The notes: generated by a model not told the origin, from the letters alone. DNA of 43,397 nt, filler included, from Jimgerdemannia flammicorona (GCA_003990765.1; 2 parts of 2 records of this genome joined end to end with filler, not necessarily neighbours in it), one strand, 5' to 3'; numbered from the whole stretch's first letter, positions 2,760 to 30,255 are shown. Numbers and translations are program-made.

Positions 2760-3134
2760 TGTTATGTGCTCTGCAGAATTCTGCAATATTTAGATTTAAA
2801 CTAGGTGTAATATAGCAGATGCATATTAGCAGAAGTGCAGTCAATTTCTTTATCTTGAATACTTGATCTTCTTTGACTTCTCAGAATCCTCAGGTGCAGG
2901 GGTGGGGGAGTTTGCAGTTATCTGCCTGCAGACTTACTAGTTTCTTGTCTCTTTGCTTGAACTATTTGATCTAAGGTTTATTAATTATAAAAACTTGAGA
3001 TATGTATATAAGTTTGCTAGCTCTATGGTAGCTAAGTTAGGACTTCTTTTTCTTTAAGTTATTTTATACAGTTGAGAGATCTGTACATCTGTACAATCTG
3101 TACAATTATGAGTTTTATACAGTTGGATAAATTA
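2760..3134. mobile_element. Possible LTR fragment of a third, older element flanking the minus-strand element
   Basis: CpG-free sequence begins near TGTTA at 2760. It contains a TATA-like tgtatataag (about 3003) and short ctgtacaat repeats, and ends where the putative LTR terminus TGTAAC (3135) starts. Boundaries are uncertain. Confidence 0.3.
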
Positions 3135-4466
3135 TGTAACTGAGAGATTGAATAACTATAAACTATAATACTATACTATATTGAGAATTGAATTCAGGTA
3201 CTATGATAAAATGGTACTTCCTAATTCAGATCAACTGTCACAACTTCTTTCTAAATAAGTAATTTTATCTCTTTTACTACATGATCTACTTGATTATATT
3301 CTCTTAATAATAACTATTCACTTACTAGAAATCTCCTAGAACTACTTCTTGGAAATAGGCTAGGACTTGCTTGTTATTCTTGAATAATAATAGACTTAAT
3401 TAGTAATAGTAATCTGAATATAGAATATCAAATATTTCACAATGTTTCTTTTTTTACTAAGTTCTTTTTTTTATTTAATAATTATTTCAACTTAAAGTAC
3501 TCTTGATACTCAGCACAATTCTGATAGACTATAATATGTAAAATACATAATAGATGGGTCTGTACAATACTTTAAATACTGTCAAAGAAATACTCTATAA
3601 TTAGTGATTTAATAGAATACTATTATCTTTCTATAGCTTACTGAATAGCACTTATGATCCTGAGATCAAGACAGTACTTTATTGGTTAGCCATAGTACTT
3701 CTTAAGTTAGTTTTAGTAAATAGTAGTGAGGATAATTATGTCTGATAGTTTTTATAACTAAAAGGTAATTTCTTTTATTTTTTGAACAACATAAGATCTT
3801 TTCTACTTAGACTCTAGTTTTTGTAATTATGGAGTTTTTAATATATTTTAATATATCAGAACTTTATCTTTCATTTTGATAATCTCTAAGAGCTTACAGA
3901 TCTTCTCTATATTATATTATTATAATACTTATATATATCTTGATTATATAATCTTTAGTCTTATTTCTTATTTAATATAATCTCTATTTTTTGGCATTTA
4001 TATATTTTTATACTACATCACTATTAGATAATAGGATTTCTTTATAACTTTCTTCTCTGAATAGCAATTTCTGATAGTTGAGAAGTGTACTTTATAATTG
4101 TATATTTGAAAATAGATAATACTATTAGTAGATAGTGGTCTTAATTTTCAAAGTTATTACAGAACTTAGTAATAATATTCTTGAGAGTCTTGATAGTTCT
4201 TTCTATCTGTTAATTTCTCTATAGATACTGTTATATAGTGGTCACTAAGTTCTTCAAATATGTCAGATTCTCTTCAAGGTGTATCTCTTAGACTAACTCA
4301 AGTTTGTTATAAGCAAGTCCTTATTGAAGTGCCTTCCCAAGGTCTTATAGTCCTCAAACTTCTTATCTTTAAACTGTCTTGTTATCTCTTTAGATTGCTG
4401 GTAAGGAATTATATATATTACATATACTAAGAGGAACTGACTTTATTTCAAAGGAAATAAGAGGGA

Positions 4467-4474
4467 TATTTATA
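4467..4474 (-). promoter_or_regulatory. TATA box in the element A LTR
   Basis: TATAAATAtccctc on the minus strand, about 270 bp downstream of the U3 ORF. Element B has the same layout (TATAAATAccccct). Confidence 0.55.
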
Positions 4475-4744
4475 CAAAATATGATTTAATAGTTGCTAAG
4501 ATATAAAGCTAAATATAAATTTCAATAACCAAATAAAATACTGGAATACAGAAAACTATAGTTGTCAGTATAGATTTCAGTATTGATATAGATTGTTGCA
4601 TAAGTTCAGAGTACTGATAGAATTTCAGTAGTATAGGAAAAGGATGCTAGAAGAATTCAGAGTTACACAGAATCAGAATACCAGTGAAAGGATTAACTAT
4701 TATATGGGAAAAGGATTCTGGCAGAATTCAGTATCACTAAGAAT

Positions 4745-5566
4745 TTAAAACAGAAAGTTCAGAACCATGGGGGCTTCATCCTCATTACTGTCCTCAAAGA
4801 AGATGAGGTGTGTGAATATTTTATCCATTTTGCATGCTCTATAGCATGTTTCACATATATCATATGGGATAATATCATCACCAATCACATCATCACATTT
4901 GGTAGCAGAGAGAGCAAGAAGATCAGAGGCTCTCTAGTCTATAAGGTCCTCTTCCACAAAATAAGAGACAAATGTGGGGTCTTGGAGAGATCTAACCTAG
5001 ATGCTTGGGCCTTAGAATACTGTGATCAATCCTTACAGGAATTGATCTGGGTTGTTCTAGAGGATGGGATATCAGAACTCTTCTATTTCATTATTATTGA
5101 GAGTGATATTGGACTAGGCTTTTATAGCCATCATAGCTTCTAGTATATTGATACAGTGGGCCGATAGATCCCTGAAGTCTGAGACTCTAGTATACTCCAA
5201 GTTGGGGATTGATCATAGTACATGCCTGAAGATCTGATAAATCTTCTTGGTTATCCTTATTTCACATATATCTATAGAAGTGGCATCTTGTAGCTCTTGA
5301 GGGCTGGCTTGAGGGAATTCCCAGCAGAGAAGATTTCCTATTTCATATTCTTACTATATCTGGAAGCATTCAGTAGCAATGGTAATTCTTGTTTCTATCT
5401 TACAGCAGTAGAGAATATAATGATAAGAGTTGTTAGTACTCAGGTTGACACTAGGAGTCTTTGTAGTATAGATCCTTATAGCTCTTTGGATGTCTTGGAA
5501 TATCTTTTCCTAGACTGAGAGGTCTTAGTGATTCCTTGACCTTGAGGTTTGGTAAGCAGCAGGTAT
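4745..5566 (-). pseudogene. Decayed accessory ORF (about 273 codons) inside U3 of the element A LTR; apparent homologue of the 19712-20809 ORF
   Basis: One frame with no frameshift: (M, now ATA)PAAYQ...V*EKIFQDIQRAI...ECFQI**EYEIGNLL...ITKKIYQIFRHVL*SIPNLEYTRVSDFRDLSAHCINIL...FEDSNEDEAPMVLNFLF*. The stops are explicable by single transitions. Confidence 0.65.
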
Positions 5567-5820
5567 TTTATTTATAGTAAGTCTTTGAGCTATTTCAGAA
5601 TTAGTAGTTATTGAGTTGCTACTACTGTAATTCCTTGATCCTTTTTTTATATTTCTTGAGATGTCTATTTTATAGTCCCAATGACTTACAGTTGGTCATC
5701 ATGGCTCATCTTGTAGTCTGGGTGAGTCATGTTATATAATCTTCTTATTCTCTGATCTGGTGACGTGTAAGAAAAGACTATCTCCAGTACTGATATCATC
5801 ATTCTGAGGTTACTGTTACA

Positions 5821-5830
5821 TCTTCCTCCT
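5821..5830 (-). other. Polypurine tract of element A
   Basis: AGGAGGAAGA on the minus strand, directly 5' of TGTAACAG and about 350 bp after the integrase end. Confidence 0.65.
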
Positions 5831-6189
5831 GAATAAGAACTTTTGAATGTTTTTATTCATTAGTCCAGTCCTGAAAAATTTAGTGATCTCATAACCTCTG
5901 GCAGAGGGTTGAAAAGTGGTGTTTATAGACTGGCATCTTCTCTATGTATTTTGGTATAATGGTGAAGAGTCACTTCCTTCATATAGAGCAAGGGTCTGAT
6001 TCTGATCTTGACTAATTAGTTGATAGTTCAAACTCCTCTGGCTTTAAAAGTCTCAAAGATAAGAAGTTACTAGTACTGTATTCTTAAGAGAATAGTCCAG
6101 ACAGATTGTCTACTAGTTATGGGACATGCTGTTACAATTTATGGACTAGAACCTTATGGGTGGTTATTATATTTTACTTCTCTTATATA

Positions 6190-8730
6190 GGTTCATAGTA
6201 CTTCTTAAGTCTGTTCCTATATACCATAGTGGACAGTATGGTCTCTGAGAGTTTTCTAAGTCAGAAGGTAGTTCTCTTGATATCTTATACATAGAAGGGT
6301 TCTTCCCATTTGGGCTCCAGTTTTCATGACTATGAGGCTTCTACCATATTTTAATATAGTAGAACCTTTTCTCTGATTTGGATAAGTTCTAGAGTCTTGT
6401 AATTCTTCTCTACATTCTTCCTTATCAGCACTTATGACTTGATGATGTGATCTTCAGCCTTCTTTCTGATTTAGTATAGTCTCCAGATTTCAGAGTCTAC
6501 CCATCTCCAAGTTAGGTCTAGATTTGTGGCTGAGGTTCCATCAGAATCTTCTTCTCTAAAGAGCAGTTCTCTTGGGGTAAAGTGTGTACTCTTGACCATA
6601 TATCTCATAGGACAGAGAGAGCAGTTGGGAGATTGTTATCTCAATTGTCATATGTGTCTGAGATCTTCACCAGAATATTCTTGAGAGTCTTGTTGGTTCT
6701 TTCTATCTATCCATTTCCTTGAGAGTAGTATGTGGTAGTCTTAATATGCTGAATCTTGTATTTCTGATATATTATCTCATAGAATCCATGGACAAATTCT
6801 GTGCTGCAGTCTGTAGTGATTTGCTTTTGTATTTTGTAGCAGCAGATGATTTCTGATACAGAAAGTCACTAAAGAGAGAACATTGGCTTCTTGTAATGCT
6901 TCTGCTTCTATCTATTTGGTAAAGAGGTCTATAATAACTATAATATAGTGGTTTCCCGATAGTGTTACTAGTAGTGGCTCAATGATATCTATTGCAATGT
7001 AGTGGAAGAAGATAGGCTCAATTTGTAATAATCTGAGTGCCTGGTCTTGCTGATCTTATTTCTGTTTTTAGTACTTGTCATACTCTTTGACAAATTGGCA
7101 CAGGTCTTCTTTTATCTTTGGCCATCACATGGTTCTTCTTACTTGTTGTATATGTTGATTTCTCCTAGGTGTCCTTGTTTATATACTTCCTTTATTACTT
7201 GATACTTCCAGTGTTCAGATATTACAAGCTTTTATTCTTTTCTGAGTATGGTGTTATCTAGTTCAAATTGTTTCCAAGTCCAGTTAATGATGGTGATAGT
7301 CCAGGGTTTGAGGTAGTTGGGTATCTTCCACTGTCCAAGATAGCTAATTAATCTATAGTATAGCTCCTTATCTATGTTGATAGTCTTGATGGAGGTATCT
7401 TTGAGAGTACATCAGTATTGGTGTTGGTTCTCCCTGAGTGGTGCTTGACAGTTCAGTCATACTCTTATGTATAGTCTGTAGATCTATCTGGTATATATTC
7501 CTTTGGGGTTCAAAGTATAGAATAGCCAAGTAAGAGCAAAATGGTCTATTTGAATAGTGAAGTGTTTTCTGGCTAGATAGTAGTAGAACTTGTCTACTGC
7601 TCAAACTACTGCTAGGCATTTAAGCTTGCATGACTCATAGTTCTGTTCTACTCTATAGGTACCTCAGCTTATATAAGAGATGACATATTCATAACCATCT
7701 TTCTTCTGTGCTAGGACTGCTCTAAGTCCCATAGTACTTATGTCTGTTTGCAGAATGAACTCTAGATTCCAATCTGATATGGGTGCTTGGGTCAATCTAG
7801 TCTTGAGTTCATTGAAGGTTTCTTGCTATTCCTTAGTCTATTCAAATTTGGTCTCTTTCTTCAGTTGCTTGTAGATGGGTGCTATAATGTTGGAGTATCC
7901 TTTGATGAATCTTCCATAATAGGAGGCCAGTCCAAAGAAGGCATGGACTTCTATAGTTGTCCTGGGTCTTGGGTAGGATGTAACAGCCTCAATTTTCATA
8001 GAATCTATATGAATTCCAGTCTAGTTGATAATGTGTCCTAGGTAGGTAATTTCTCGGGCTACAAACTTAAACTTCTTAGGCTTGATATAGAGACCATATT
8101 CCTTGAGCTTCTTGAGAGCTAGCTGTATGTGGTTGACATGTTTCCACACAGTATTGCTGAAGATGATCATATCATTAATATAGACAAAGAGGTATTTTCC
8201 AATCTCATTGCTGAAGACTCTATTCATCATTTATTGAAAACTTGCTGGTGTATTGCATATTCCAAATGGCATTCAAAGGTAGACATAGGTGGCATCAGGT
8301 ATGAGGAAGGCTGATTTTTCACTGGCATCTTGAGTGAGACCAATCTGATGAAAGCCTGAGAACAGATCTCAGGTAGTATAGTATTTGGCTTTGCTTCCAA
8401 GAGTGTAAGGATTTCTTGAATATTTGGCAAGGATATCTATCCTTCTTGGTGATTGCATTGAGCTTCCTGTAATCAATATAGAGTCTTGGGGCAAACTCTC
8501 TAGGCTTGCTTTCTTTCTTTGGAGTGAGGACAATAGAAGAAGTCTAGAGGCTAATAGCTTGCTTGATAATTCCAGCTTCTTTCATTTCCTTGAGTTCTGC
8601 TTGCAGTCATTCTCTATAGGCAGGTGGTATAGGTCTGGCTTTCAGATAGATGGGCTTGATATCACTGGTGTCAACTTCATGATAGTACTTGGATTCTTGA
8701 TTGTGAATATGAAGTCTGTGGCAAGTACTT
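6190..8730 (-). pseudogene. pol: pol (RT, RNase H, integrase) of element A, heavily mutated
   Basis: ORF pieces 8021-8230 (LFVYINDMIIFS...HIQLAL...ITYLGHII) and 8227-8430. RNase H FILQTD-like motif about 7750. Integrase core and GPY/F-like tail ending VYRNRLKKYY. No chromodomain seen after it. Confidence 0.85.
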
Positions 8731-8866
8731 CTTCATTCTAGTTCAGGATCTTGAAAAGTTGTTCTTTTAGAGAAATGTTTTCTCTAACGATATATGTATG
8801 CTTGTTCTGATCCTTGTCTTTCTTATGCTCAAGTTCAGTAATTTTAGTAGTAGTATAGGCTCCTCT

Positions 8867-9280
8867 TCCAGTAGATCCAAAGTCTTGTTCTTCTCTCTTA
8901 GTCTTGATAAGTTCAATGGCTTCCATGATCTTAGGCTTCTTGACTTTATGGATCAATATCTGGCCAATCCTGTCATACTTCTTGACTTTGAATAGGGTGG
9001 TAGAGTTGTGATTCCTGGCTATGAGGAAGATTTTGACAGTGTAATCAGGGTCAATTACTCTCTCTTCAACTGAGATTTCACTTTTGGCCAGACTGCTCCT
9101 GGTCTTAATAATTCTGTTATAGTTTTCTGGCAACTTGACTCCAATTCCAGTACCAAGTAGAGTAGTGGTCTGTGGTTTGAGGGTAGCATCTTGAATGCTG
9201 GCAAGGTCCATTCCTATGGCTGCTTCAGTCTTATATTATGGAATCTTAACTTTGGGATAAAACTTCTTGACTTTAAGAGT
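8867..9280 (-). pseudogene. dut: Trimeric dUTPase domain of element A, between protease and RT
   Basis: ORF 8738-9211 and the upstream frame give GMDL (motif I), TRSSLA (II), VIDPDYT (III), DRIGQ (IV) and REEQDFGSTG (V). Confidence 0.9.
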
Positions 9281-10882: not shown

Positions 10883-12913
10883 TGTAAGCACACAACCTCC
10901 AAGCCACTGAAATTACATGTCACCCTCAGAACAAATCTGGAAATCACCTACTTGATCACAAAGCTGAGTCAAACTGAAGTCACAGCGCACAAAGCTGAGT
11001 CAATACGAAGTCACAGAACACAAGATTTACACAAACGGAGTCTTACCAATCAGGACCAAATGCATATATACTGAGCACTGAGATGCATCGAAACAGAGAA
11101 CCAAAACAAACAACAACCACAAACTTCCAAACATACAAACATGACCACCGAGATCTACAACCATATCTGTGCTGACATTTGGAATGCCATTGTCAACCGA
11201 GCCACACCCCCTCTGCCCCTCATGAATATCCATAGCCTAGCACCCCTCTACTTCGTGGAAGCCTGATGGAATGCCAGGAATATGCTTAATGAGGCCCACC
11301 GGATCGGACAAATATCAAGCTACTACCAGATTGGCTGCCTCTTGGAAGATATGGTCGAACACCACCACGATACAGACATTACCCAGATGTCTCAACACCA
11401 GAAGCTCATCGTCGGCAAACATCGAGAACTCTTCTATGAGTACAACACCTTTATTCCCTATCTCCGAGTTACTACCAGCAAAATGTTGCTACCCTATCCT
11501 ATGGCCAAATTGATGACATGATACAAGAACTCAACCACAAGTACCTCGAATATGTCCAGACCACAGACAGAACCTTTCCACACCCCAATGATCATATCCT
11601 GCAAATGCCCCAAGTTGGATATGCCATGAAGGACATCTACAATATAATCCACTTCGATGAAGATGAAGCAGAAGACAATGATCCCTCTGACGCCGACATG
11701 ACCTCTAGCCAAGGATCTCTGCCAACCCTGATCACCCCGCCAACCTTCTCAATGAACTTACAATAGTTCATAACTACATACAGGACTTATTGGGACAATG
11801 ACCACTGGCACGAATACCAACCTGCATTCACCCCTGATTACTTCAATTACAATGAAGAGACCAGAGAACACAACCTGTACCTCCAGACAACCCTCGAGAT
11901 CGAACCAACAACCCCACCACCTGAGTATGAGTGACATGAACCACAGCCGCCAGCTTACTACAACCCCGCGACTCACAGTGCTGTAACCTATAGAAGGTAC
12001 GCAGACAGTGAATCCGATGAAAGCGAAGACAATACACCCATCCTTCACCCACCAACACCTTATCCAGCATATGAAACAGATGATGCTATCCTGTCGGATG
12101 GAGATAAAGTTCCAATGTACTATTACCTCAGCGAACAAGGAGAAGTAATCCGCAAACCATTATTCCTAGATGACTACTTCATCAGAGATGATGCAATTGA
12201 TGGTGATGTCATCGAAGACTACCCAGACAGTGCCTAAACCCATAAATAGTCTAGCAGTCATAGTATAGTTAGCTTAGCCTTGTACGACATGACTGTGAAC
12301 TGACTCAGCAGTCAGACAATCTCTTGACATGTCAGATCACACTTGTACTATGTGACTACATTCCAACTCAGTAAAGCACTTAGTGCTACATCCATATTCA
12401 GCATAGTCTAGATAGCCCCTCACTAGTATAAATACCCCCTCCCCCAGACCTCAGAATCCCAGACTCGAATACATAAGAACATTCCTGAATACTTCCCCAC
12501 AATATCCCTTTACACAACTACTCCTAGTATAGCAATATCATGAATAGCAAATAAACCTATTTCATAACCCACAAACCACTCTTAAGTAAATCCGCTCCCT
12601 GTTAGGTCCTACTCCTAACTCCATCACGAAATTTCCTAATTGGGTATTGTCTGCAGCGATACACCAATTGAACTAAGCTGGTCTTAGTTTCTTGAACTTC
12701 CTGAAATACGGAAAATCCTGAACATCCAGAACTAGTCCGAAAAAGGACTTTGGTTGAGATGTCAACCCGATCTTGAAATCAATAAGCGTAGAGGATGTAC
12801 TCCATACGAAATTGATCTTGACCATAAGAAAACGGTCTTCCAGAACATCCAGAATATCTAGAAAACCCTTCCAGAACTACATAACAGTTACCCTAAAAAG
12901 TAACCCTCTTACA
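10883..12913 (+). repeat. 5' LTR of element B (2031 bp)
   Basis: Direct repeat of 19423-21487 with TGTAAG/CTTACA termini, TATAAATA at 12427-12434 and AATAAA at 12550-12555. I counted about 20 mismatches to the 3' LTR in a 220-bp sample, mostly transitions. Confidence 0.95.
11141..12237 (+). pseudogene. Disrupted 5'-LTR copy of the U3 accessory ORF
   Basis: Colinear with 19712-20809. TGA at about 11264, a 1-bp deletion at about 11486, TAG at about 11764 and TGA at about 11932. Confidence 0.9.
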
Positions 12914-12916
12914 ACT

Positions 12917-12928
12917 TAGTAGCAGTGG
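12917..12928 (+). other. Primer-binding site, probably initiator tRNA-Met, with one G>A change
   Basis: TAGTAGCAGTGG lies 3 nt after the 5' LTR and resembles TGGTAGCAG, the complement of the eukaryotic tRNAi-Met 3' end. Confidence 0.65.
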
Positions 12929-14940
12929 TTTACAATCCAATTCCGCTTCAAGACGCTTCCTCACCCTACTACAAACCCCTCTAAGAATTCCTACAAGTTG
13001 GTATAAAGCCCAACCTCTGAACTGGAATTTATCCTGAACTATCTGACAATCTGGAGAGAATTGAACCTGATGTACAAGGACAATTTGACCTCCATACCTG
13101 CAACAAGTGGGATAAACTTCATTCAAAAAAAGAAGTACTCTGGTTAAACCAGCAAATAGGTGAAACCCTATTCACCGAACTCCTTGTACTACACCTAGCA
13201 AGTCAAGACGAAGAAGGTCTTATTGAAGCCTTCTTTACTCTTCTCAACAAGAGTTTTGTCAGCTTCACAAATCCGAGCAACCTAGGACAACCAGCAGCAG
13301 TCTTTCTAGCCTTAGTTCCTCATGAAGCCCAAGCCTCTGTAGCCAAGTGGCTCAACTCTACCGACTTTTACCACACCAGGACCAAGACCGCCTTATACTA
13401 CCGATTCCAGAACAGCAAGGCCCGCTATATCCTTAAGGAAGAAGCAAGAGAAACTCTTCATCAACTACCTGACCCTGAACCTGAAGCAGGCCCTGCTACA
13501 GCCCTATCTGAATCTGAAACCAATACCGAACCTGAACTTGACTTTGAATTAAGTCTATCTGAAATCAGATATACAACTGATTCTGTCTACTTTGATGCCA
13601 AGCAAACCCAATTACATGGGGACCAAACCAAAGAAGAGGAGGAGTATCTCACCGAATTCGATCCCGGATACACCACTGAAGGAGACATACGTCCATCAGG
13701 ACAGAATACACCTACACAGCAACAAACAGCTATCTATCAAGCCCTCACTCCAGACCCACAACTACTATTCCAGCAACTTATACAGACCCAAAGAACCCCA
13801 TCACACTCTGCACCAGTACCTCAAGTAGTACTAGTAACACCACTACCAGCAGTCCAACTGCCTCCAGCTATCAACATGGCGAACCAACAGATTCTTGATC
13901 TCACAGCCCAAGTAGCTATAATGGCAGCAACTATCACTGCCTTAGCTGAACAGACCTGACCTACCAAAAATCTGAGCCTACCTACCTTCAATGGTACTAC
14001 ACAAGAAGTCCAAAGCTTCATTAGTATAGTTGACACCAACTTTGAAGCCAATCAATGGACTAATGAGTGAGTTGCTGACCACATCCTGATAAACAATCAA
14101 GACCACACTCTGGAACAACTCTTTGCTACTACTACAGCCTATGTCCGCCGAGTTGTTACATTCTTCTGAGGACCTGCCGAAGAATGGTAGCGAACCCTTC
14201 CTGAAAAACCCCTCACATGGGATACCTGACCTGCAGTAGTTGCCCAGAATGCAGCAAACAATGCCCCAGGATATGGAGCCCATCCTGCAGCCCCTGGACT
14301 CAAACAACTCATGATTGCTCAATATCGCAGCGAGACCATGATTGCCGAATCTCAAGTAAAACTCTGCAACCTCAAATTCGATATATATAGCAAAGAAGAA
14401 TTTGAAACCTTCTGTACAAAACTTGAGTCACTTCTGAACACTGTTGGCCTAGGATACATTGCCAATGACGAAGCACGAAATAGTACAAGAGCAGACCATT
14501 TATTTGATGCCCTGCCTGAATGGCTTACTAGAAAAATCCGTGAGCAAGGCTGCCCAGTTGGTTGTGATCACCAACAATGGTGCCTGGCAAGAATCAAGAC
14601 CATGGTCAAGCGAATTCTAATGGCTGGACCAATTCTGTCCCAAAGACAATTTAACAATAAGGAAAAGACTTGGACCAAGAAAGAAGAATCCAAGCATGAA
14701 GCATCCCGAGCTCCCTCCACATCCACCTCTTGGACACCCAGAAATCATGAACCCACCCAGCCAAGTACCTTCAAGAAACTAACTGAAGGTGAAAGGAATG
14801 AACTTCGAAGAAGTGGAGCATGCTTCTATTGCCGAAAGACAGGACACATGGCCAGTGCCTGCTCTAACCGAAAACCCCAAACAACAACCTGAGCAACTGT
14901 CACCACTCTGCACCATCTCAACCACCTGACCACCAGAACA

Positions 14941-15348
14941 CTATACTTTGTCAAGTTAAGACAAACTGCTAAGGCCCCAACCAAAGAAAGTCAAAAAGCA
15001 ACTGGATATGATCTGTATGCAGCCGAAGAAGCTACAGTTTCTAACTGAGAAGTCAAACAAGTCTATACAGGAATCAGTATCCAAATCCCTGAAGGACATG
15101 TTGGAAGAATATGCGGTTGCAGCAGCCTAGCACTGAAAGGACTCTCAGTAGAAGGAGGAGTCATTGATGAAGATTATACAGGCGAAATCATTGTCCTCAT
15201 TCAAAACCACAGTTGGACACCCTTCAAGATCCCTATTGGCTTCTGCATTGCCCAGATCCTATTCGAAAAAATCGAGTCAACCCTGACAGTCAAAGAAGTC
15301 CCTGAACTACTGCCCACCATCCAAGGATCTAAAGGATTTGGCTCATCA
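14941..15348 (+). pseudogene. dut: Trimeric dUTPase domain of element B, between NC zinc knuckle and protease
   Basis: Not in the ORF track. Manual translation: LYFVKL...TGYDLYAAE...GRICGCSSLA...GGVIDEDYTGEI...FCIAQI...IQGSKGFGSS. All five motifs are present, with conserved Arg codons altered by CpG transitions. Confidence 0.92.
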
Positions 15349-18300
15349 AACAAAGCCCCAGCCCAACCTACCATAAGCAAAGAAGAACAATTCTACAAGA
15401 AGATCAAAGATGGATATGTACCAAGTGGCTGATGCCCTCATGGTATTGGAATGTACTCTTCCCGAATAATTGATGATTGCTTCTCTTGTGTCAATGAACT
15501 GGCTCAAAGAAGAACCAACAGAAGAAAGGCTCCTACAACTGAAATCACCAGCATTGGATCAGACAAACTGCTCACCCTTAAGGCTTTTGTCAATGGAGCA
15601 CCTGTCAAGATTATAATAGACAGTGGCACCTCAGGCAACTTCATCAATGAAGAAACAGCCAACAGACTAAAGGTCTTTACCTCTCCAGTGCAGCAAACTC
15701 AAGCAGTTGCTACAGCTGATGGAACCTCACATATTATTAGCAAAGAAGTCTGCAATCTACCCTTTCGAATTGGCGACTACCGAGTACATATTACACTCCA
15801 AATCATACCACTTCCTGACAATGAAATCATCCTTGGGACTCCATGGTTAAAACAAGAGAACCCTATGATTGATTGGGTAAACCATTCCCTGACTATTAAG
15901 AAAGGACGCTACAACTTCAAACTACAAGGCGAAAAGGACTCACTCAACTCTAGTGACCCTGGACCAAAGGTCACCCACATCAATAAGCTACAACTCAAGA
16001 AATTGGCCAAGAAATGCCCTCTCTTCACCATCTCCATCTGACTATCCAAAGGAGAACCCGAGAACTCTGAAGAAGATTTTTCCAAAGTTGACAGCTGTGT
16101 CAGACCACTACTCCAGAAATTTCGAGACATATTCCCAAAGAAGCTCCCGAAAGGCCTACCTCCCAAATGAGCAGTAGACCATGTAATCAAGACTATCCCA
16201 GATGCCAAACCAGCCTTCAAGTCAATCTACCACATGTCTCCGAGAGAAATTGATACACTCAAGAAGGAAATCGATGAACTCCTAGAACAAGGATTCATCA
16301 GACCCAGTGTATCACCCTATGGTGCACCAGTCCTCTTCATTGTCAAGAAAGGAGGAGACCTGCAAATGTGCATTGACTACTGCGATCTCAATGAACAGAC
16401 TATCAAGAACTGTTGCCCACTACTGAGGATTGATGAAATATTCAATAGGCTCACCAATCCACAATTCATGAGCTCTTTTGACCTGCGAAATGGCTATTGG
16501 CAAATTGCCATAAAAGAAGAAGACATCTACAAGACAGCCTTCCGAACTCGCTATGGACACTTCGAGTTTCTGGTTATACCCTTTGGCTTAACTAATGCTC
16601 CAGCAACCTTCCAGACACTAATGAATACCATTCTACATCCATACCTGGACAAATTTGTTGTTGTCTACATTGATGACATCCTAGTCTTCAGCAAAACTCT
16701 GGAAGAACATCTTGAACACCTTGAACTAGTACTACTAAAACTCCAAGAAAACCGACTCTTTGCAAAACTCAGCAAGTGCGAATTTCTTCTGAAAGAAATC
16801 CAATTCCTTGGACACATTGTCACTCTAAATGGAATCAAAGTGGACCCCAGCAAAATCTCTGCGATTAAGGATTGGCCCAGACCCAAGAAGCTAAAAGACC
16901 TCCAGTCATTCCTGGGATTAGCAATCTATTACAGGTGATTTGTTGCCAACTTTGCCAAAATTACTACTGCGCTCATCCAAATGATCAAGCACAGCAAGAA
17001 ACAAGAACAACCCTGGACCATGAAACAAGAGAAAGACTTCAACAATCTTGTAACTTGGGGACCCAAACAAGATACTGCCTTTCAAGCACTGAAAGATGCC
17101 CTGATAACCACACTAGTACTTCAAGCAGCAAACCCTGCCCTACCATATGAAGTTACTACTGATGCCTCTGATCTAGCTCTTGGAGCAGTGCTCATGCAAG
17201 AAGGACACCCTGTCACCTATCACTCCCGCAAGTTCAACAATGCCGAAATTAACTACGCAACTCATGAGAAGGAAATGCTAGCCATCGTAGACACTCTGAT
17301 CAAATGGCGACCATATCTAGAAGGAGCACACTTCACTATATTGACTGACTACAAGTTATTAGTCAACATCAAGACACAGGCTACCCTTTCCCAAAAGCAA
17401 GCCAGATGGATGAAAGTCCTCACCAACTTTGACTATGAAATTCAGTACCGCCCTGGCAAGGAAAATATTGTTGCCGATGCAATCTCCAGACCACCAATCA
17501 AAGAGGTTATCCAAACTCTGACCTTGGTTACCAATACTATCATGGAACAAATCATCGCAGCATGTGTCGATGATAAAGAAGCTCAAATACTCCGAGAAAT
17601 CCTGAACAAGGATGATGCTGACAAGTATACCCGGTACAATCAATATCAACTCAAGGACAATGCTATCTACTATAAGGACAGATTGTATGTTCCAAACAAC
17701 CGAGACCTCTGAAGGACTATCCTATTCGAATGTCATGATGCCCCTACAGCTGGACACTTAGGATTTGATAAATGCTACAAAGTTATCTCCCAAAACTTCT
17801 ATTGGCCCCGCATGGCAGATCAGCTCAAGACCTACATCACTTCCTGTGATGTCTGCCAATGAAACAAGTTCTCAACACTAGCAAAACCCAGCTTACTTCA
17901 CCCTATTCCAGTACTATCCGCAAATTGAGAACAAATCTCTATGGACTTCATTGTACAACTACCCCAAACCAAGAATGGGAAAGATGCAATTGTTGTCTTT
18001 GTGGACTATCTCAGCAAACAAGCCCACTTTGTGCCTACTACCACTACTGCAACAGCACCAGACATAGCCACACTCTTATTTGATAACATCTTCCGCTATC
18101 ATGGTCTTCCCAAGATCATTGTTAGTGACCGAGATCTGAAATTCACCAGCCACTTTTGGAAAGCCCTCCATGCGCACCTTGGAACAAAACTTGCACTATC
18201 CACAGCCTTTCACCCTGAAACCGATGGCCAAACTGAAAGAATGAACCAAACACTAGAACAAATGCTAAGGAACTATATCTCCTACAGACAAGATGATTGG

Positions 18301-18830
18301 CATGAACACCTCACCGCAGTCGAGTTTGCCTACAACAATAGCAAACAAGCCTCTCTTGGAATGACCCCATTCTTTGCCAATACTGGACAAAACCCAAACA
18401 CCCCTCTGACACTTATCCGAACTACCGATAAACCCTCCACAGTTGAAGCTATTGAAGAATTCCTACTCCGGATGCGCAATCTAAGTCAGATCGCAATTGA
18501 GAATTTATCACGAGCTCAAGAACAACAGTCACAGTATGTTAACCAACACCGCTGAGAAGAAATCTTTGACATTGGAGAAAAAGCCCTACTAGACATCAGA
18601 GGATACTGAGTTGACAACCTCAAGCACAGACCATCCACAAAACTGAACAGCAAGTTCATTGGACCATTTGAAGTCATCGCACAAGTCTCTCCAACCTCCT
18701 ACAAATTGGTGCTACCAGACACCATTAAGATTCACCTCAACGTCTCAAGCAATACAATGAGAATGATGACGAGCTATTTCCAAATCGGACCACCAAATCA
18801 CCTGCATCTGTCATTATTAATGACCAAGAA

Positions 18831-18977
18831 GAGTATGAAGTTGAACAAATCCTCAACAAACGTAGTAACAAGAATCATCCTGAGTATCTTGTCAAATGGA
18901 AAGGTTACCTGATCCACGATGCAACCTGGGAACCCAAGACCAATCTCCAGAATGCTACTGACTTAGTTCAGAAATAT
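18831..18977 (+). other. Integrase C-terminal chromodomain
   Basis: [49 protein letters not shown], with aromatic cage residues Y/W/Y present. Confidence 0.9.
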
Positions 18978-19408
18978 GATTCTTTAAACAACTAGAACCA
19001 AATACTCTGCACCTATCCATACATACTATATATTACCCTCCTAAACATTATAACTATCATGAACCAAGTCAAGAACTCAGCAAAAAACAAGACAAGAATA
19101 CTGAATCCCTGGAAAAATAGCAAAACTGAAAGCAAGCCTATTCTCCCTGTACCACTGGTGGGAAACAAGGCATAGACATTTAAGAAGATTTCTTAGAGGA
19201 AATTCTCCAGCAGTAAACGACATCAGAATCACTTCCGGCGCATGGCATTGAACACATGACCCTTTAACATGTGAATCCAATGCATTAGGCAACTGTACTA
19301 TGAGCATGCCACTTTCTGAAAAAATGGACCTTACCAGACTTTTGATCTCCCAAACAGTATAACAACACTAGAACAAATTAGAAGGCCCCGACGAGGACAT
19401 CGAAAGCT

Positions 19409-19421
19409 AAGAAGGGGAGAG
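19409..19421 (+). other. Polypurine tract of element B
   Basis: AAGAAGGGGAGAG, ending 1 nt before the 3' LTR start TGTAAG. Confidence 0.9.
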
Positions 19422-19422
19422 T

Positions 19423-21487
19423 TGTAAGCGCACAACCTCCAAGCTACCGAAATTACACGTCACCCTCTGAACAAAGCCACTGAAATCACACACGACCTCC
19501 GAACAAATCTGGAAATCACCTGCTTGATCACGAAGCTGAGTCAAACCGAAGTCACAGTGCACAAAGCTGAGTCAATACGAAGTTACAGAACACAAGATCT
19601 ACACAAACGGAACCTTACCAATCAGGACCAAATACATATATACCAAGCACCAAGATGTGTCGAATCAGAGAACCAAAACAAACAACAACCACAACTTCCA
19701 AACATACAAACATGATCACTGAGATCTACAACCGTATCCGCGCTGACATTTGGAATGCCATTGTCAACCAAGCCACACCCCCTCTGCCCCTCATGAATAT
19801 CCATAGCCTGGCACCCCTCTACTTCGTGGAAGCCCGATGGAATGCCCTGAACATGCTTAGCGAGGCCCACCGAATCAGACAAATCTCAAGCTACTACCAG
19901 ATCGGCCACCTCCTGGAAGATATGGTCGAACACCACCATGATACAGACATCACTCAGATGTCTCAACACCAGAAGCTCATCACCCACAAACATCGAGAAC
20001 TCTTCTATGAGTACAACACCTTTATTCCCCGCCTCCGAGTTACTACTAGCAAAATGGTCGCTACCCTGTCCTATGGCCAAATCGATGACATGATACAAGA
20101 AATCAACCACAAGTACCTCGAATACATCCAGACCACAGACAGAACCTTCCCGCACCCTGATGACCATATCCTGCAAATGCCTCAAGTCGGATACGCCATG
20201 AAGGATGTCTACGATATAATCCACTTCGATGAAGACGAAGCAAAAGACAATGATCCCTCTGACGCTGACATGACCTCTAGCCAAGGATCTCTGCCAACCC
20301 TGATCACTCCACCAACCTTGCCAATGAACCTACAACAGTTCATAACCATATACGAAACTTATTGGGACAATGACCACTGGCACGAATACCAACCCACGTT
20401 CACCCCCGATTACTTCAATTACAATGAAGAGACCGGAGAACACAACCTATACCTCCAGACAACCCTTGAGATTGAACCAACAATGCCACCACCTGAGTAC
20501 GAGCAACATGAACCACAGCTGCTGGCTTACTACAACCCTGCGACTCATAGTGCTGTAACCTATAGAAGGTATGCAGACAGCAAATCCGATGAAAGCGAAG
20601 ACAATACACCCATCCTTCGCCCACCAATACCTTATCCAGCATACAAAACAGACAATGCTATCCTGTGGGATGGAGATGAAGTTCCAATGTATTATTATCT
20701 CAGCAAACAAGGAGAAGTAATCCGTGAACCATTATTCCTAGATGACTACTTCATCAGAGATGATGCAATTAATGGTGATGTCATCAAAGACTACCCAGAT
20801 AGTGCCTAAACCTATAAATAGTCTAGCAGTCATAGTATAGATAGATTAGCCTTGTACGATGTGACTGTGAACTGACTCAGCAGTCAGACGATCTCTTGAT
20901 ATGTCAGATCACACTTGTACTACATGACTGCATTCCAACTCAGCAAGGCACTTAGTGCTACATCCATATTCAGCATAGTCCAGATAGCCCCTCACTAGTA
21001 TAAATACCCCCTCCCCCAGACCTCAGAATCTCAGACTTGAACAATCCAAACACAACTCCTGAGCACTTCCCCACAATATCCCTTCACACAACTACTCCTA
21101 GTATAGTAATATCATGAATAGCGAATAAACCTATTTAATAACCCACAAACCACTCTTAAGTAAATCTGCTCCCTGTTAGGTCCTACTCCTAACCCTGTCA
21201 CGAAATTTCCTAATTGGGTATTGTCTGCAGCAATACACCAATTCAACTAAGCTGGTCTTAGTTTCTTGAACTTCCTGAAATACGGAAAATCCTGAACATC
21301 CAGAACTAGTCTGGAAAAGGACTTTGGTTGAGACGTCAACCCGATCTTGAAATCAATAAGCATAGAGGACGTACTCCATACGAAATTGATCTTGACCATA
21401 AGAAAACAGTCTCCCAGAACATCCAGAATATCCAGAAAACCCTTCCAGAACTATGTAACAGTTACCCTAAAAAGTAACCCTCTTACA
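19423..21487 (+). repeat. 3' LTR of element B (2065 bp)
   Basis: Direct repeat of 10883-12913 with an extra repeat unit of about 32 bp near 19470-19500. Two AAGCTGAGTCAA motifs (about 19534 and 19564), TATAAATA at 20999-21006 and AATAAA at 21124-21129. Confidence 0.95.
19712..20809 (+). CDS. Intact LTR (U3)-encoded protein of unknown function, 365 aa from the ATG shared with the 5' copy (384 aa from 19655)
   Basis: Uninterrupted intronless ORF wholly inside the 3' LTR and upstream of the LTR TATA box. Helical-looking N-terminal half and acidic, Pro/Tyr-rich C-terminal half. Confidence 0.75.
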   Translation: MITEIYNRIRADIWNAIVNQATPPLPLMNIHSLAPLYFVEARWNALNMLSEAHRIRQISSYYQIGHLLEDMVEHHHDTDITQMSQHQKLITHKHRELFYEYNTFIPRLRVTTSKMVATLSYGQIDDMIQEINHKYLEYIQTTDRTFPHPDDHILQMPQVGYAMKDVYDIIHFDEDEAKDNDPSDADMTSSQGSLPTLITPPTLPMNLQQFITIYETYWDNDHWHEYQPTFTPDYFNYNEETGEHNLYLQTTLEIEPTMPPPEYEQHEPQLLAYYNPATHSAVTYRRYADSKSDESEDNTPILRPPIPYPAYKTDNAILWDGDEVPMYYYLSKQGEVIREPLFLDDYFIRDDAINGDVIKDYPDSA

Positions 21488-21649
21488 ACTATAGATCCTG
21501 CTGTGCCTGGTATAGTTGAGCTGCTGGACAATAGCTAGCCTAAGTTAATGGGGGGGCAGTGCTTGATGGGTGGTGGTGGGGGAGGGTTTTGGCCTATATA
21601 GTCTAGGTTCCCTTCTAATAAAAATCTGTGGGACATTGAGTCTGTTAAA
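21488..21649 (-). mobile_element. Probable continuation of element A gag up to the gap
   Basis: CpG-free like element A. One minus frame reads EGNLDYIGQNPPPPPPIKHCPPINLG*LL. Confidence 0.5.
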
Positions 21650-21749
21650 NNNNNNNNNNNNNNNNNNNNNNNNNNNNNNNNNNNNNNNNNNNNTTAATTA
21701 ATTAANNNNNNNNNNNNNNNNNNNNNNNNNNNNNNNNNNNNNNNNNNNN
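21650..21749. other. Assembly gap with artificial spacer (44 N + TTAATTAATTAA + 44 N)
   Basis: Symmetric 100-bp block. The 12-mer places stops in all six frames, which is typical of contig-joining linkers. Confidence 0.95.
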
Positions 21750-21850: not shown

Positions 21851-24267
21851 CTACGCACTGCTTTCCCCTTCCTCCACCGACCTCCTAGCCGCAGCCACAG
21901 CCAACGGATTGACCTTGCTCAGGGCAGTCATCATGCGCCTCAATCCGAGCTGCAGCATCTCCCAATCCATCGCGAACGTGAGACGGAACCACCCTTCTTC
22001 CTCGGCATGGAAGGACTCGCCCGACGCAATATAGACGCCATGATCAAGAAAAGAGCGGGCGAGCGCCCGTTCAGCGTGCCGAGCACCGTCGGGAATGGGG
22101 CCATTGCTGGTGGGTGGCTTTGGAAGGAACGAGCGGAGGTCGATGAAGATGAAATGGCCCGCTTGGGCGGGGAGATAGTTTATCGAATGCGAGCGGAGGA
22201 AGTGCGTGAGACGTTCGTACGATTCGGCGAGACGGCGTTGATTGGTAGTAAGGAACCTGAGGAACGTGCCGGGTAAGCGTAAAGATAAGATAATCCACGT
22301 TAGATCGTAGATTGAATAAGTTAATATGCCAGGGGTGCCAGCTAGCCAAACATAACTAGGGGTATCCGGTGCTCCTTGCAATAGACCGAGCCTCCATCCC
22401 AACTTATTTCCCCTCCACGCCATCATCATACGAGCAAATAAAATGGAAGGAGAAGAGAAAGAGAACGAGGAAAGCAGAAACAAAGAAAAATGTAAAAAAA
22501 AAAAAAAACGATGTTCTCTTCGATTCTTCCCACTTCCGAAAATCTCACGCCCATCATCAATGCCACCACGCTCCCCATTAATAAGAACAAAATAGTAGAT
22601 TAATCGAAATTAAAAAAAAAAAAACCACCTAGAAGAGCAAATATGACAGTATCATCCAGCTCCGGCGATTCTCCACCAGCCCTCACAATCTCATCCGCCC
22701 TCCCCACAAACATATAATATTCGCACGCAAACAATGAAAATGACCAACGTGACCGGAAAAGTATCAAGCCATGGCTCGTAAGACAAAAAAAACAACAAAA
22801 AAAAAAAAAAAACTCAACCTCGTTTGATAACGCATATGTAATCATATAAAATGGCTTGTTCTACTTACCAATCCACCCACGTATCGTCGGACAGCATATT
22901 GATGACCAGCGCCTCCGTGGCAGACGACACCCACGTAAAATCACTAAGTACAACGGTAATAAGGAGTTGAGTTAATTGCCATGCCACAATATCAACATTT
23001 GAGGAACCGCCCACAAACACCGCGAACGTATCCCAAATCCGCGGCCAGAATCAATGTCACGAACTGTTCTCGGATGACACCTCGCTTCCTAGGACATTGG
23101 CTCTTACACCCTAGAAATCTGGGGTTGTCACCTAGTTCCTCTTTTAGTCCACTTTATCAAACATACATCCGACCCATTTCTCTGTGCACAGAGAGTCATG
23201 ATACCGGTGTATAAGTGTAGATGCACACCAGCCCTTCTCGGCACCTTTAGCACTCGTACTCCACGTCCAACCAGCTCTTTCCGACCCACCGAGGCACCCA
23301 AAAATAAGACAACAATATATGAATCAAAATATCATTGCAAAATTTGATTACATACGCGATCGCCTTCATCGCATTCACAACATCTGGATTCCACGGCGAA
23401 ATATGGAACCCGACACGGAACCCGTTCAAGCAGAAATCCTTGGAAATGCCGTAGACAACCTGGACCAGTGCCGGATCGATGAGGGAGGCGAGGTTATCGA
23501 GCGAAAGAACAGACATGAAGGGGTCCGACTTAGAATCTCCGATGATGTGGTCGAAGTCGGATAAAGCGTACACTTCGTCGAAGATGGCGTGAAGGTTGTG
23601 CTTGGAGGCAAAGCGGAGGAGGCGCTCTATCACCGCGCGAGAGTAGCATCTGTAAAGGAAACAGGAATATTAGTTGAACAACATGGTAGAAACATCATTT
23701 AAAACGACGAACTCCTTCCACATGGACACACCCGAATCACCGCGTGGATAACTCGATATCCCTTTCCTGACTTCACCCTGAAATCTTTCCTTTACCTCAT
23801 CCCCGTACCTCACTTGACCAACACGCCAAAAAATCGACAATACCTGGCCAAAGGGTTGTGCGGGTTGCAAATGATCATAGCACGAACATTGATCCCATCT
23901 GCCACGGCTTTCTGATAAGCGCTCTCGAGACTTTCGACATGATCAACATCGAAAGGGGAACGCCCCTCGAGGTTAACGGTGATAGTGCGCGCGCCCGACC
24001 TGACGGTCACGTCCGAATCGAAGGTCCCGTAGTAAGGTGCGGTGATGAGTACGGCATCACCGGGGTCGCAGATCGCGTACGAGAGGCCGTTGATGGCCGC
24101 GCTGACGCCGTTAGTGACGGTGATGTGATCGGGATGTACGGGTGTCTTAGGGTCGAAGTACTTGTTCAACAGCTTCGCAACATGCGTGCGAAGCTCAACG
24201 GAGCCGTGCGGCAAGCCGTATTGTAGGTGCTATAGGGACCATGAGGGCGAGAAGAGAGGGAACGAGA

Positions 24268-27521: not shown

Positions 27522-29487
27522 TTACCGAATATTCCCCTCGGTCAACGACTTCACCGTCACGGGACCTTTACTCGTCATGAAAGGCACTCCCTTATAATGC
27601 GCCACCCTCTCCATCGTCAACCCAAACTCCACCGCCACCTTCCCAAACATGTTTTGTTTCGGGTTCAGCACCTCCCCTCCCCTCAGGGCAGTCTCGTACC
27701 CCTCCCAAGTGACGGCCTCGCCGATCTCGGCACCCTCAGGCGGCTCGAGCAGTTCGATGACTTTACCCTCAGCGTCTGACGCCGCCAGGACCATTGCATG
27801 GGATTCGACACCCTGGAACTTAGCCGGCTTCAAGTTGCAGACCGTGAGGATACGTCTGCCCTGCAAGTCAGCAAGCGGGATGTAATCGGCAAGGCCGGAA
27901 ACCACTGTCCGAGGACCCGTTGCGTCGCCGACTTCAATCTCCTCAATGTAAGATTTCGGGTTGTTGGGGTGGGACCTAGCGCTGATGATTTGAGCGACGC
28001 GGATGTCTGAGAATGAAAATATTGACACCTAGCCATAAGAATGATGGAGTCCTTTCTCCACGCGCAAACCGATAGATATTGCCGATGCCTCGATCGAACT
28101 ACCTAGCACTAGCATTCCTACCTAACCTCGACACATCTTCGGGCTTCTCGGAACCCTTCTTGCTCCCAGTCGCCGTTGCTCCTGCCGCCGGTACTACGGC
28201 CTCTTTCTTCGGCACGACCTTCTGCTTGACCTTATCCGAGACCTGCGGGTACGCCGTCTCTATGAGCTTGAGTAGCTCCGAGTCCTTATTGAACGTTTCG
28301 CGAATAGGCGCGAGCAGGGCGTTCAGGGCGGCAGTAGCGCCGGCCTTCAGATCGCCTGGATGCACCTTCTTGTCACGGAAATCAGCCTCAAGCGCGTGAT
28401 AATCAGTGTAGCGGATGTCGCCTCCAAATTTCTCGAGTCGACGGATCGTAAATTCAGGCTGCTTGCCGTAGAGGGATCCTAGCGGAAAGAGTACGGCCTT
28501 GATGAACGACAGGATGCCATTGTCGGTGACGTTACCTTCCTCGCAGAAGGCCTTCTTGAGCTTGCGTTCGACAGCCTTAGGGTCATCCAGCAGGTCAATC
28601 TTGGAGTCCGGATCCGACGAGGACATCTTAGACCCAGCGAGACCGGGGACCATGGGATTCATGAGATGGGCGCGTTTCTTGTAGCCGAGCTGCGGGAGGT
28701 ACTTCTCCGCCATGACGAAGATCTTGCGTTGGTCGACGCCGCCAAACTGCGCGTCCACCTCCAGAAAGTGCTCGTCCAAGGCCTGCATGCCCGGGTACAA
28801 GAGACCAGAGAGTAAGGGGGACTCCACCTGCTTCACGACCTCGGCGCCGGCCTTCTTGGCATCGTGCTCGGTGATGCATGCGCACAGACGGAAATTGTCC
28901 ATGCTATAAGCGGCCGAAAGCTGGTAGTTCGAGCCGACGACAAACTTGAGCTTGTCGATAGGGGTGCCAATGGAGGTGAGCATAGCCTTGATGATGGCCT
29001 CGTAGTACTTGGTGCGGTGGTTGACCAGCTCGAGAGGAGCTTTCATGTTATCCAGAAACGCATGTATATCGGCAAGTAATATCGTAACCTTGGTGATGGA
29101 AGAGGTGGATGTAAAATAGCCGTGTTAAGGAGGGTAACAGCAAATACATCCGGTGTATTATTGGTGAAGGGCACACGCATTCAATGCCAGCAGTGTTCCT
29201 CTTTTCCTTCCTACTCTGCTTACTTCTGAGAACTCGAGAGCCTAGATATTGTTCCCCCTTTCCGGAGAAAAACAAGAGCATCTCACCTGGCATCCAGCGG
29301 CCAAGAAGTCGGCAATCTTTGACATTGGCACGAAGTAGCCGATGTGAGGCTTGCCGGTCGGAGCGGTACCCCAGTAGAGCTTGAGATCCCGCTCGGCGAG
29401 GACTTTTTTGATCTCGTCCTCGCCTAGAACCTCCTGCAGGTTCCGAGTAATGAGGGTGAATTTCTCGTCGGGGTTGAGTTGAGACAT
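27522..29487 (-). CDS. TYS1: Cytosolic tyrosyl-tRNA synthetase with C-terminal EMAP II/Arc1p-like tRNA-binding domain (3 exons, 550 aa)
   Basis: Exons 29487-29287, 29088-28122 and 28006-27522 are in phase. Motifs [32 protein letters not shown] and KMSSS. C-domain LDIRVAQI...RTVVSGL...[20 protein letters not shown]. Confidence 0.96.
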
Positions 29488-29525
29488 GTTGCAAGCAGAA
29501 GTTGAGGCCTTGATTCACTAGGTCT

Positions 29526-29557
29526 TCTGAGTCACTGACTTTTAAATCTGAGTCACT
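29526..29557. promoter_or_regulatory. Tandem TGAGTCA (Gcn4/CpcA/AP-1-type) sites upstream of TyrRS
   Basis: TCTGAGTCACTG occurs twice, 21 bp apart, with cores at 29528-29534 and 29549-29555, 40-70 bp upstream of the ATG. Confidence 0.5.
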
Positions 29558-30255
29558 GGCTTGCGCAGCAATTTTAAAACGCGCCTTGTCCAATCAGAGG
29601 CGTTCACAAGCCACCACATTTTGTGGCTTGGCCATCGAGAGAGACGTCATCATCAAACCAATGTCATGTCTCTGACAAAGCTAATTGAGTATTGTGAAAA
29701 AAATAAAAAATAAAGGATGAGTAAATTCAACAATAATTTTATCATTTTATTTACTATAATATAATAAAGTATATATTATTTAAGTTTATATTATTTTATT
29801 CAATAGATATTTGAATAATATAAATATAATATTAATTTTTATATAATATAGTTATTAAATAAAAAAGTTGTAAAATTATATTTTTTATTTTACTTATAAT
29901 ATTCTAAAAGATCTATTATAAATATATTTATTATAATATTATTAGTTAACAACTAATATATCTAAACAAAATAAAAATAAGAGTAAATTGCAGTCAACTG
30001 TTCTCATCCATCATTCTTAAATGTGAGAAATTGCACTATTACAAGTGAGAGGATCAATAAACTTGCTCATGCACTCATCTGCAAAAATTGATGAAGGACA
30101 GTTTCGAATATCCATTAGCACCAAAATATTGGCAGATGTGGACCCATTGCTTGAATTCGTTATAAATGAATACGGTTCAGACGATTTCGACCTCGGTTCC
30201 GAAATTGATTCTGGCCCAGTTATGAGCCCGACTCGGCAAGCCACTAATTATTGAA

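Follow-up and report, generated by a model that had tools for sequence, protein, structure and literature searches.

A candidate accessory protein gene within the long terminal repeats of a Ty3/Gypsy retrotransposon of Jimgerdemannia flammicorona

The retrotransposon and the reading frame in its LTR

The analysis described here concerns an open reading frame (ORF) inside a long terminal repeat (LTR) of a Ty3/Gypsy retrotransposon, located in a stretch of DNA of 43,397 nucleotides (nt) from Jimgerdemannia flammicorona (GCA_003990765.1; two parts of two records of the genome joined end to end with filler), which is referred to below as the window. The window contains one Ty3/Gypsy element with a pair of LTRs, on the + strand (10883-12916 and 19423-21490). 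The ORF (19655-20809, + strand) lies wholly within the 3' LTR, starts 232 nt inside it, past the polypurine tract, and comprises 384 codons and a stop codon (20807-20809). The frame is open from stop to stop over 412 codons (19571-20809), and in 2000 shuffles of the LTR that preserved its dinucleotides no frame attained this length, the longest having 250 codons. An earlier note, made by a model from the sequence alone, had described a frame of 365 amino acids at 19712-20809; this frame is indeed open and inside the 3' LTR, and in fact it extends upstream to the ATG at 19655, with the ATG at 19712 giving the 365-residue form. The same note had the ORF duplicated in both LTRs. A counterpart is present in the 5' LTR (11141-12237, + strand), but only the 3' copy is open, as the 5' copy is broken by three stop codons (11264-11266, 11764-11766 and 11932-11934) and by the frameshift that results from a 1-nt deletion after 11484. 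No further copy of the ORF was found elsewhere in the window.

The assignment of the element to the Ty3/Gypsy superfamily (Metaviridae) is based on its internal region and its termini. The internal region (13021-18912, + strand) encodes, in this order, gag with a CCHC zinc knuckle, dUTPase, protease, reverse transcriptase, RNase H, integrase and an SH3 domain (Pfam matches zf-CCHC, dUTPase, RVP_2, RVT_1, RT_RNaseH, rve and SH3_Tf2-1), so that the order protease, reverse transcriptase, RNase H, integrase is the one that is characteristic of the superfamily. The dUTPase (15049-15432) is situated immediately before the protease. Since the internal region is split over at least eight frames, the element is dead. 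Both LTRs are direct repeats with TG..CA termini: the 5' LTR (10883-12916, + strand, 2034 nt) starts with TGTAAG and ends with CTTACA followed by ACT, and the 3' LTR (19423-21490, + strand, 2068 nt) has the termini TGTAAG and CTTACA. A degenerate primer-binding site (12917-12928, + strand) directly follows the 5' LTR and the polypurine tract AGAAGGGGAGAG (19410-19421, + strand) directly precedes the 3' LTR. The end of the LTR in the family is marked by a contig of run X4 (one of the four runs used below) that runs past 21490 into the intact form of the family's word resembling a primer-binding site. The cores of the two LTRs are 91.6% identical (blastn, 10901-12919 against 19474-21494), and the 3' LTR carries an insertion of 32 nt near its start (19464-19495) relative to the 5' LTR. 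A target-site duplication was not found, as the 5' flank (..AATATC) and the 3' flank (ATAGAT, or ACTAT) do not match; this is compatible with a recombinant or an old element and is no argument against membership of the superfamily.

The + strand of the 3' LTR is skewed in composition (A 708, C 592, T 446, G 325), and the element as a whole shows a skew of A over T and of C over G. Out of 164 differences between the LTRs, 145 (88%) are transitions, 54 of them at CpG sites, and on the + strand there are more transitions between pyrimidines (88) than between purines (57). The bias towards transitions and CpG sites, together with the strand skew, suggests decay by CpG methylation and a strand-asymmetric mutation process.

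Evidence for past selection on the reading frame

A first indication that the ORF has encoded a protein comes from the comparison of its two copies. They differ at 99 positions, distributed over the first, second and third codon positions as 30, 18 and 51, respectively. The Nei-Gojobori ratio of nonsynonymous to synonymous substitution (dN/dS) between the LTR copies is 0.185 in the frame of the ORF, compared with 0.81 and 1.0 for the two alternative frames. Because transitions and CpG sites dominate the differences, the changes were redistributed at random, with their counts kept, among sites of the same mutation class, the classes being based on CpG status, on dinucleotide context or on trinucleotide context. 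The number of synonymous differences observed was 51, whereas the null means were 34-36 (standard deviation ~4); a value of 51 was reached in 4 of 5000, 0 of 4000 and 0 of 4000 permutations for the three classes, respectively. The same test gave nothing significant for the two off-frames. The earlier note had named the lack of a synonymous bias among copies as a result that would refute its idea; the bias is there, with 51 synonymous changes among the 99 where ~35 would be expected.

For a second line of evidence, variation within the family was inspected by aligning the contigs of four runs (X1, X2, X4 and X14) to the LTR, which yielded 19 positions within the ORF among 40 of the 532 variant rows. 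Within the 384-codon frame (19655-20809), none of these 19 best-supported variants creates a stop codon, and among 12 of 18 indel rows none that was listed for runs X1, X2 and X4 lies within the ORF. At six sites both LTRs of the window differ from the majority of the reads, and five of these changes are synonymous. At 11 sites that are private to the 3' copy, four changes are synonymous, as expected for neutral decay.

A third line of evidence is provided by two database fragments, the only relatives that were recovered in a HMMER search against 1.84 billion representative proteins without a length filter. Each of them seems to derive from a further copy of the LTR. The first, P0003 (128 amino acids), is 91% identical to the ORF protein and its first residue corresponds to the methionine encoded at 19712. 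The second, P0002 (247 amino acids), is more divergent: its alignment covers residues 134-383, contains two in-frame gaps and no stop and shows identity at 164 of 246 positions (66%), and the match extends to the last residue but one. The conserved blocks of the ORF protein are well kept in P0002. To put this in perspective, the DNA of the ORF was mutated neutrally to the same protein identity as P0002. The fraction of BLOSUM-positive replacements in P0002 was 52%, compared with 33% +/- 5% in the neutral simulation, and none of 1500 simulations reached 52%. At this divergence a stop-free outcome was obtained in ~2% of the neutral simulations; database fragments are, however, open frames found by a gene caller, an ascertainment bias that weakens the argument from the absence of stops and leaves the test of the replacement pattern unaffected. 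The 1-nt deletion in the 5' copy (11484) removes the G of an internal ATG (Met134, 20054-20056), and P0002 starts at this same methionine; the agreement is probably fortuitous and due to gene calling, although an internal start is possible.

Taken together, these three independent lines of evidence make it very probable that the ORF is a genuine protein-coding gene of the family, either now or in the time that the family was active. The proposal of the earlier note, an accessory coding sequence inside the LTR of a Ty3/Gypsy element, thus gains support from the synonymous bias among copies and from the conservative replacements in the divergent relative.

The encoded protein

The protein has 365-384 amino acids. 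The N-terminal half is predicted to be helical and is near neutral (isoelectric point, pI, 6.15), while the C-terminal half (residues 176-384) is very acidic (pI 4.06) and rich in tyrosine and proline. Several possible identities were considered and rejected. A relation to F-box proteins was indicated by Atlas feature scores of 0.82-0.87 only, with no Pfam match for either the whole protein or N-terminal pieces. Three W...YY hairpin motifs, which we took to be WW-like, raised the possibility of WW-domain repeats, but the resemblance failed the profile tests, as there was no Pfam match and no PDB sequence match at E up to 10. An origin from the gag of the element itself was dismissed, since no similarity was found (best E 0.74). 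At the DNA level, no relative was recovered from collections of metagenome, genome or viral contigs, and scans of the window with Rfam and for tRNAs gave no match.

Position of the reading frame relative to candidate transcription signals

The way in which the ORF could be expressed depends on where it lies within the transcript, and the LTR contains two sets of candidate signals. Downstream of the ORF there is a candidate core promoter, the TATA box TATAAATA (20999-21006, + strand), and a candidate poly(A) signal, AATAAA (21124-21129, + strand). Both are kept in both LTRs. The earlier note had likewise placed a TATA box and a poly(A) signal downstream of the ORF. The two signals are 125 nt apart and together constitute the classic layout of a unique 3' region (U3), a repeat region (R) and a unique 5' region (U5), with the U3/R boundary expected ~30-100 nt downstream of the TATA box and the R/U5 boundary shortly after the AATAAA. 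On account of this layout the ORF most probably lies in U3, an assignment that, judged from consensus motifs, we consider likely though clearly less secure than the coding status itself. Upstream of the ORF there are two TGAGTCA sites (19537-19543 and 19568-19574, together 19537-19574, + strand), arranged as a tandem repeat, which are candidate upstream activating sites and had likewise been pointed out in the earlier note, and a TATA-like box, TATATA (19637-19642, + strand), located 70 nt before the ATG at 19712. These elements are also kept in both LTRs, and their proposed role is based on sequence only.

A gene in U3 could be transcribed from a promoter of its own or be reached by splicing. 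Sites resembling a splice donor (GTRHGT, a narrow pattern) were absent from 12440-13400 and 21020-21490, which comprise R/U5 and the leader, and sites resembling a branch point (CTRAY, also a narrow pattern) were absent from 19300-19715. Only two acceptor-like sites, at 19552 and 19583, precede the ORF. As no donor-like or branch-like signals were found, an internal promoter is mildly favoured over splicing, and transcription of the ORF from its own promoter within the LTR may be regarded as a tentative proposition, with chances slightly below even.

The depth of the contigs was considered as a further indication. In run X14 it increases ~100-fold from one bin to the next, from 11.9 (20924-21015) to 1234.6 (21016-21107), and it amounts to 0-33 over the ORF against 1235-8942 over 21016-21383; in the three other runs the depth changes at most ~2-fold near 21016. 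The step in X14 fits a transcription start just past the TATA box, as a weak hint, which is weakened by the fact that the DNA beyond the 3' LTR is itself repetitive. Runs X1, X2 and X4 are guessed to be DNA or are of unstated kind, and all four runs consist of contigs.

Proposed explanation and its alternatives

The best explanation overall, to which we assign a probability of roughly 0.6, is that the ORF is a genuine accessory gene of a Ty3/Gypsy family of the Endogonales (Mucoromycota), held entirely in the LTR and probably in U3. In such a position the gene would be found at the far 3' end of the genomic RNA, behind gag-pol, and translation from that RNA would be impossible. The gene would most likely be expressed from a separate mRNA of ~1.4-1.5 kb, which would start at an LTR-internal promoter formed by the TGAGTCA pair and the TATATA box, 70-175 nt upstream of the ATG at 19712, and would end at the poly(A) site of the LTR itself. 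Any LTR with an open frame, even a solo LTR, could then serve as a unit that expresses a factor acting in trans on the family. The most likely role of such a factor would be that of a regulator of the element or of a counter to silencing by the host, although any such function has to be considered speculative and improbable in its particulars. A more far-reaching version holds that the LTR is a self-contained gene cassette, with its own promoter, the 365-residue ORF and a poly(A) signal, from which a full-length element, a truncated element or a solo LTR could express the trans-acting factor; this is an unlikely possibility. In a variant thereof the protein might act as an adaptor through which a host pathway is directed against host silencing, and the weak F-box-like lead would fit such a role. 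The earlier note had proposed that solo LTRs keep and spread the gene; they would keep it, but they cannot spread it.

Several points weigh against this explanation. With respect to transcription, none of the listed runs is on record as RNA and X14 is only guessed to be RNA; moreover, contig depth cannot show the start, the end or the level of a transcript. The TATA-like box at 19637-19642, upstream of the ORF, would permit transcription to start ahead of the ORF. With respect to selection, the signal comes from small samples, namely a pair of DNA copies, a pair of protein fragments and 19 variant positions out of 532, and the synonymous excess is weaker in the N-terminal third, where 11 synonymous changes, 13 nonsynonymous changes and one stop were counted (19724-20023). 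With respect to the protein, it belongs to no known family. Searches of Pfam with E limits of 0.01 and of 10 gave no family, whether the whole protein or five pieces of it were used; sequence and profile searches of PDB returned a sole match at E = 0.22, which is a chance match; the best look-alikes in the Atlas scored 0.84 and 0.88, within the range of shuffled proteins and under the score from which a match counts for more than a lead; and AlphaFold2, run on an alignment of three sequences, gave a mean predicted local distance difference test (pLDDT) score of 31.7, so that the model is unusable. Finally, with a broken 5' copy in a dead element, nothing here speaks for a present-day function.

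The most probable of the alternatives concerns the same gene and differs in the way in which it is expressed. Here, a spliced subgenomic mRNA would be transcribed from the main promoter of the element, located in the 5' LTR, with a leader exon joined to an acceptor just before the ORF. This is the route taken by the closest known analogue, the sag gene of mouse mammary tumour virus (MMTV), and the acceptor-like sites at 19552 and 19583 are suitably located upstream of both ATGs. Considering that the scanned stretches contain neither a donor-like nor a branch-like site, at least by the narrow patterns used, we regard splicing as unlikely, though it deserves to be kept in mind.

Less probable still is a long R region. 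If transcription would start from the TATATA at 19637, R would be ~1.5 kb in length and the ORF would be the first in the genomic RNA, ahead of gag. The TATA-like box 70 nt before the ATG at 19712 and the two TGAGTCA sites upstream of it, all kept in both LTRs, agree with such an arrangement, as does the fact that the first AUG of this RNA would be the one at 19712, the start of P0003. Against it, a canonical pair of TATAAATA and AATAAA is situated downstream of the ORF, and every genomic RNA would carry, 1.4 kb from its 5' end, a poly(A) signal that has to go unused in the 5' LTR. In addition, the depth step in X14 comes after 21016 and not at 19650, a weak counter-indication. We therefore prefer to place the ORF in U3.

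It is also conceivable that a host gene, or a fragment of one, was captured into the LTR, in which case the coding signature would have been inherited and the sequence would be useless to the element. LTR retroelements are known to capture genes, and the protein lacks any domain typical of transposable elements. Nevertheless, we consider this very improbable. The HMMER search recovered nothing but the two fragments, both seemingly copies of the same LTR, and a second protein collection that includes the tyrosyl-tRNA synthetase of Jimgerdemannia flammicorona contained no named homologue of the ORF. Thousands of diverged contigs extend over the ORF region (for the LTR, X1 alone yielded 4288 pieces), which indicates many copies rather than a few, and the synonymous excess between the copies points to selection after the entry of the gene into the LTR. 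The least probable alternative, a chance open frame that was never coding, could draw on the A/C-rich and T-poor composition of the repeat, as the skew of the + strand makes stops rarer, and on the lack of any family, fold or look-alike, but it is largely refuted by the shuffling result, by a synonymous excess that is limited to the frame of the ORF and by the divergent relative with its conservative replacements and in-frame gaps.

If a selected gene in U3 is indeed what the LTR contains, the gene would be doubled at every insertion and would survive intact in the solo LTRs that are left after deletion of an element, and its expression would have to proceed independently of the genomic RNA. 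The annotation of LTRs, and of the abundant solo LTRs in fungal genomes rich in transposable elements such as those of the Endogonales, would change accordingly, as these are usually masked as non-coding. The family would offer a tractable case for the question what retrotransposons gain from accessory proteins. Since no function is known for any relative of the protein, whatever function came to light would be new.

History of this copy

The synonymous excess between the two LTRs is in itself unexpected, because the LTRs of an element are identical at insertion. The two LTRs probably derive from two members of the family that were united by inter-element recombination. This reading is based on the lack of a target-site duplication and on the presence of about three stops, the neutral expectation, alongside the synonymous excess. 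A single conversion tract or a local hot spot was rejected as the source of the divergence, since the latter is roughly even along the LTR, with non-CpG divergence of 5.2-6.4% in all three parts. At the mutational load observed, the 3' copy would have remained open by luck with an estimated chance of roughly one in ten, as calculated from the stop counts under the null and from a pair of indels located within the ORF or immediately upstream of it. The 3' copy is thus not necessarily under selection now, and the copy in the window is a fossil, with both gag-pol and the 5' copy broken.

Surroundings and abundance of the family

The runs that contain the LTR are mostly soil metagenomes, with two coded organism labels among the rest, which fits a host belonging to the Endogonales. 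In X1, a soil metagenome, the summed contig depth over 18900-21640 is ~60-350 at the end of pol, ~660-1440 over the ORF and 2000-3200 over R/U5; although summed contig depth is not copy number, the pattern hints at many solo LTRs or at derivatives that share the LTR. The sequence just past the 3' LTR (21497-21640) is itself repetitive, with high contig depth in each of the four runs and with 21497 as the first position of many contigs.

Upstream of the element a second, unrelated Ty3/Gypsy fragment was recognized (7916-9151, - strand), with dUTPase and reverse transcriptase at 36-39% protein identity to the main element, and the composition skew of the region from 4 to 10 kb is the mirror image of that of the main element. 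Downstream there are two runs of 44 N (21650-21693 and 21706-21749), an aminotransferase-like frame (21851-22609, - strand) and a gene for tyrosyl-tRNA synthetase (27522-29593, - strand) with a C-terminal tRNA-binding (EMAP-like) domain. The synthetase is 96% identical to that of Jimgerdemannia flammicorona, which places the host in the Endogonales (Mucoromycota). A second ORF of 384 codons (41017-42171, - strand) is unrelated in sequence, has no Pfam family and is rich in acidic runs; its equal length is a coincidence.

Comparison with known systems

To our knowledge, MMTV sag is the only textbook case of a protein gene that is located wholly in an LTR. It encodes a superantigen, resides in the U3 of the MMTV LTR and is expressed by splicing. 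The ORF described here resembles sag in that both comprise ~320-380 codons, lie wholly inside the LTR in sense orientation and precede the promoter and poly(A) signals of the LTR. There is no sequence homology to the Sag family, as Pfam gave no match to the protein even with E values up to 10, and inspection by eye revealed neither a signal nor a membrane segment in it. Furthermore, sag belongs to a betaretrovirus, whereas the element described here is a Ty3/Gypsy retrotransposon that lacks env and resides in a fungus, and its ORF is only proposed to lie in U3 and to be expressed. If the cassette version of our explanation were true, this would be the first LTR-borne protein gene to be described in a retrotransposon outside the retroviruses, and it would imply a coding role for solo LTRs.

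A broader class of comparable sequences is formed by the additional ORFs (aORFs) of LTR retrotransposons, such as those of the plant elements Grande (gene23), RIRE2 and Retand and of Boty in Botrytis. According to the available parts of a review, these are extra ORFs that occur throughout a family, have no homologues in the databases and are possibly regulatory; they belong to the internal region, where most of them follow pol and precede the 3' LTR, and many run antisense (PMC7264820). The LTR ORF is like the aORFs in being additional to gag-pol, family-wide and without a known homologue. It is unlike them in its position, which is neither between pol and the 3' LTR nor upstream of gag: the polypurine tract and the start of the LTR precede the ORF, so that the ORF is inside the LTR and two copies are present per element. 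The phrases "within the LTR", "in the LTR" and "inside the LTR" are absent from the review (PMC7264820). In a phrase-based survey of open-access literature, including the accessible parts of PMC2864245, PMC7264820 and PMC6431247, no LTR-borne protein ORF was found in a retrotransposon.

With respect to the internal region, a precedent exists among the fungi. PosPlaTy3-3 of Postia placenta is a Gypsy element that is described, in the portion of the source at hand, as having a dUTPase at the N-terminus of Pol (PMC2864245), similar to the dUTPase directly ahead of the protease in the present element. A figure legend of the same paper lists an "add. ORF" for some elements, and an ORF borne by the LTR is not described in that portion of its text (PMC2864245).

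A final parallel is offered by Cassandra, a terminal-repeat retrotransposon in miniature (TRIM), which according to part of a preprint carries a 5S rRNA-derived sequence inside its LTRs (bioRxiv 10.1101/2023.07.14.548913). Cassandra is a non-autonomous plant element and its LTRs contain a pol III RNA gene, whereas a protein ORF is found here in a fungal element of the autonomous type. What the two have in common is a gene-like unit inside both LTRs that is promoted independently, as we propose for the ORF in the LTR of this Ty3/Gypsy family.

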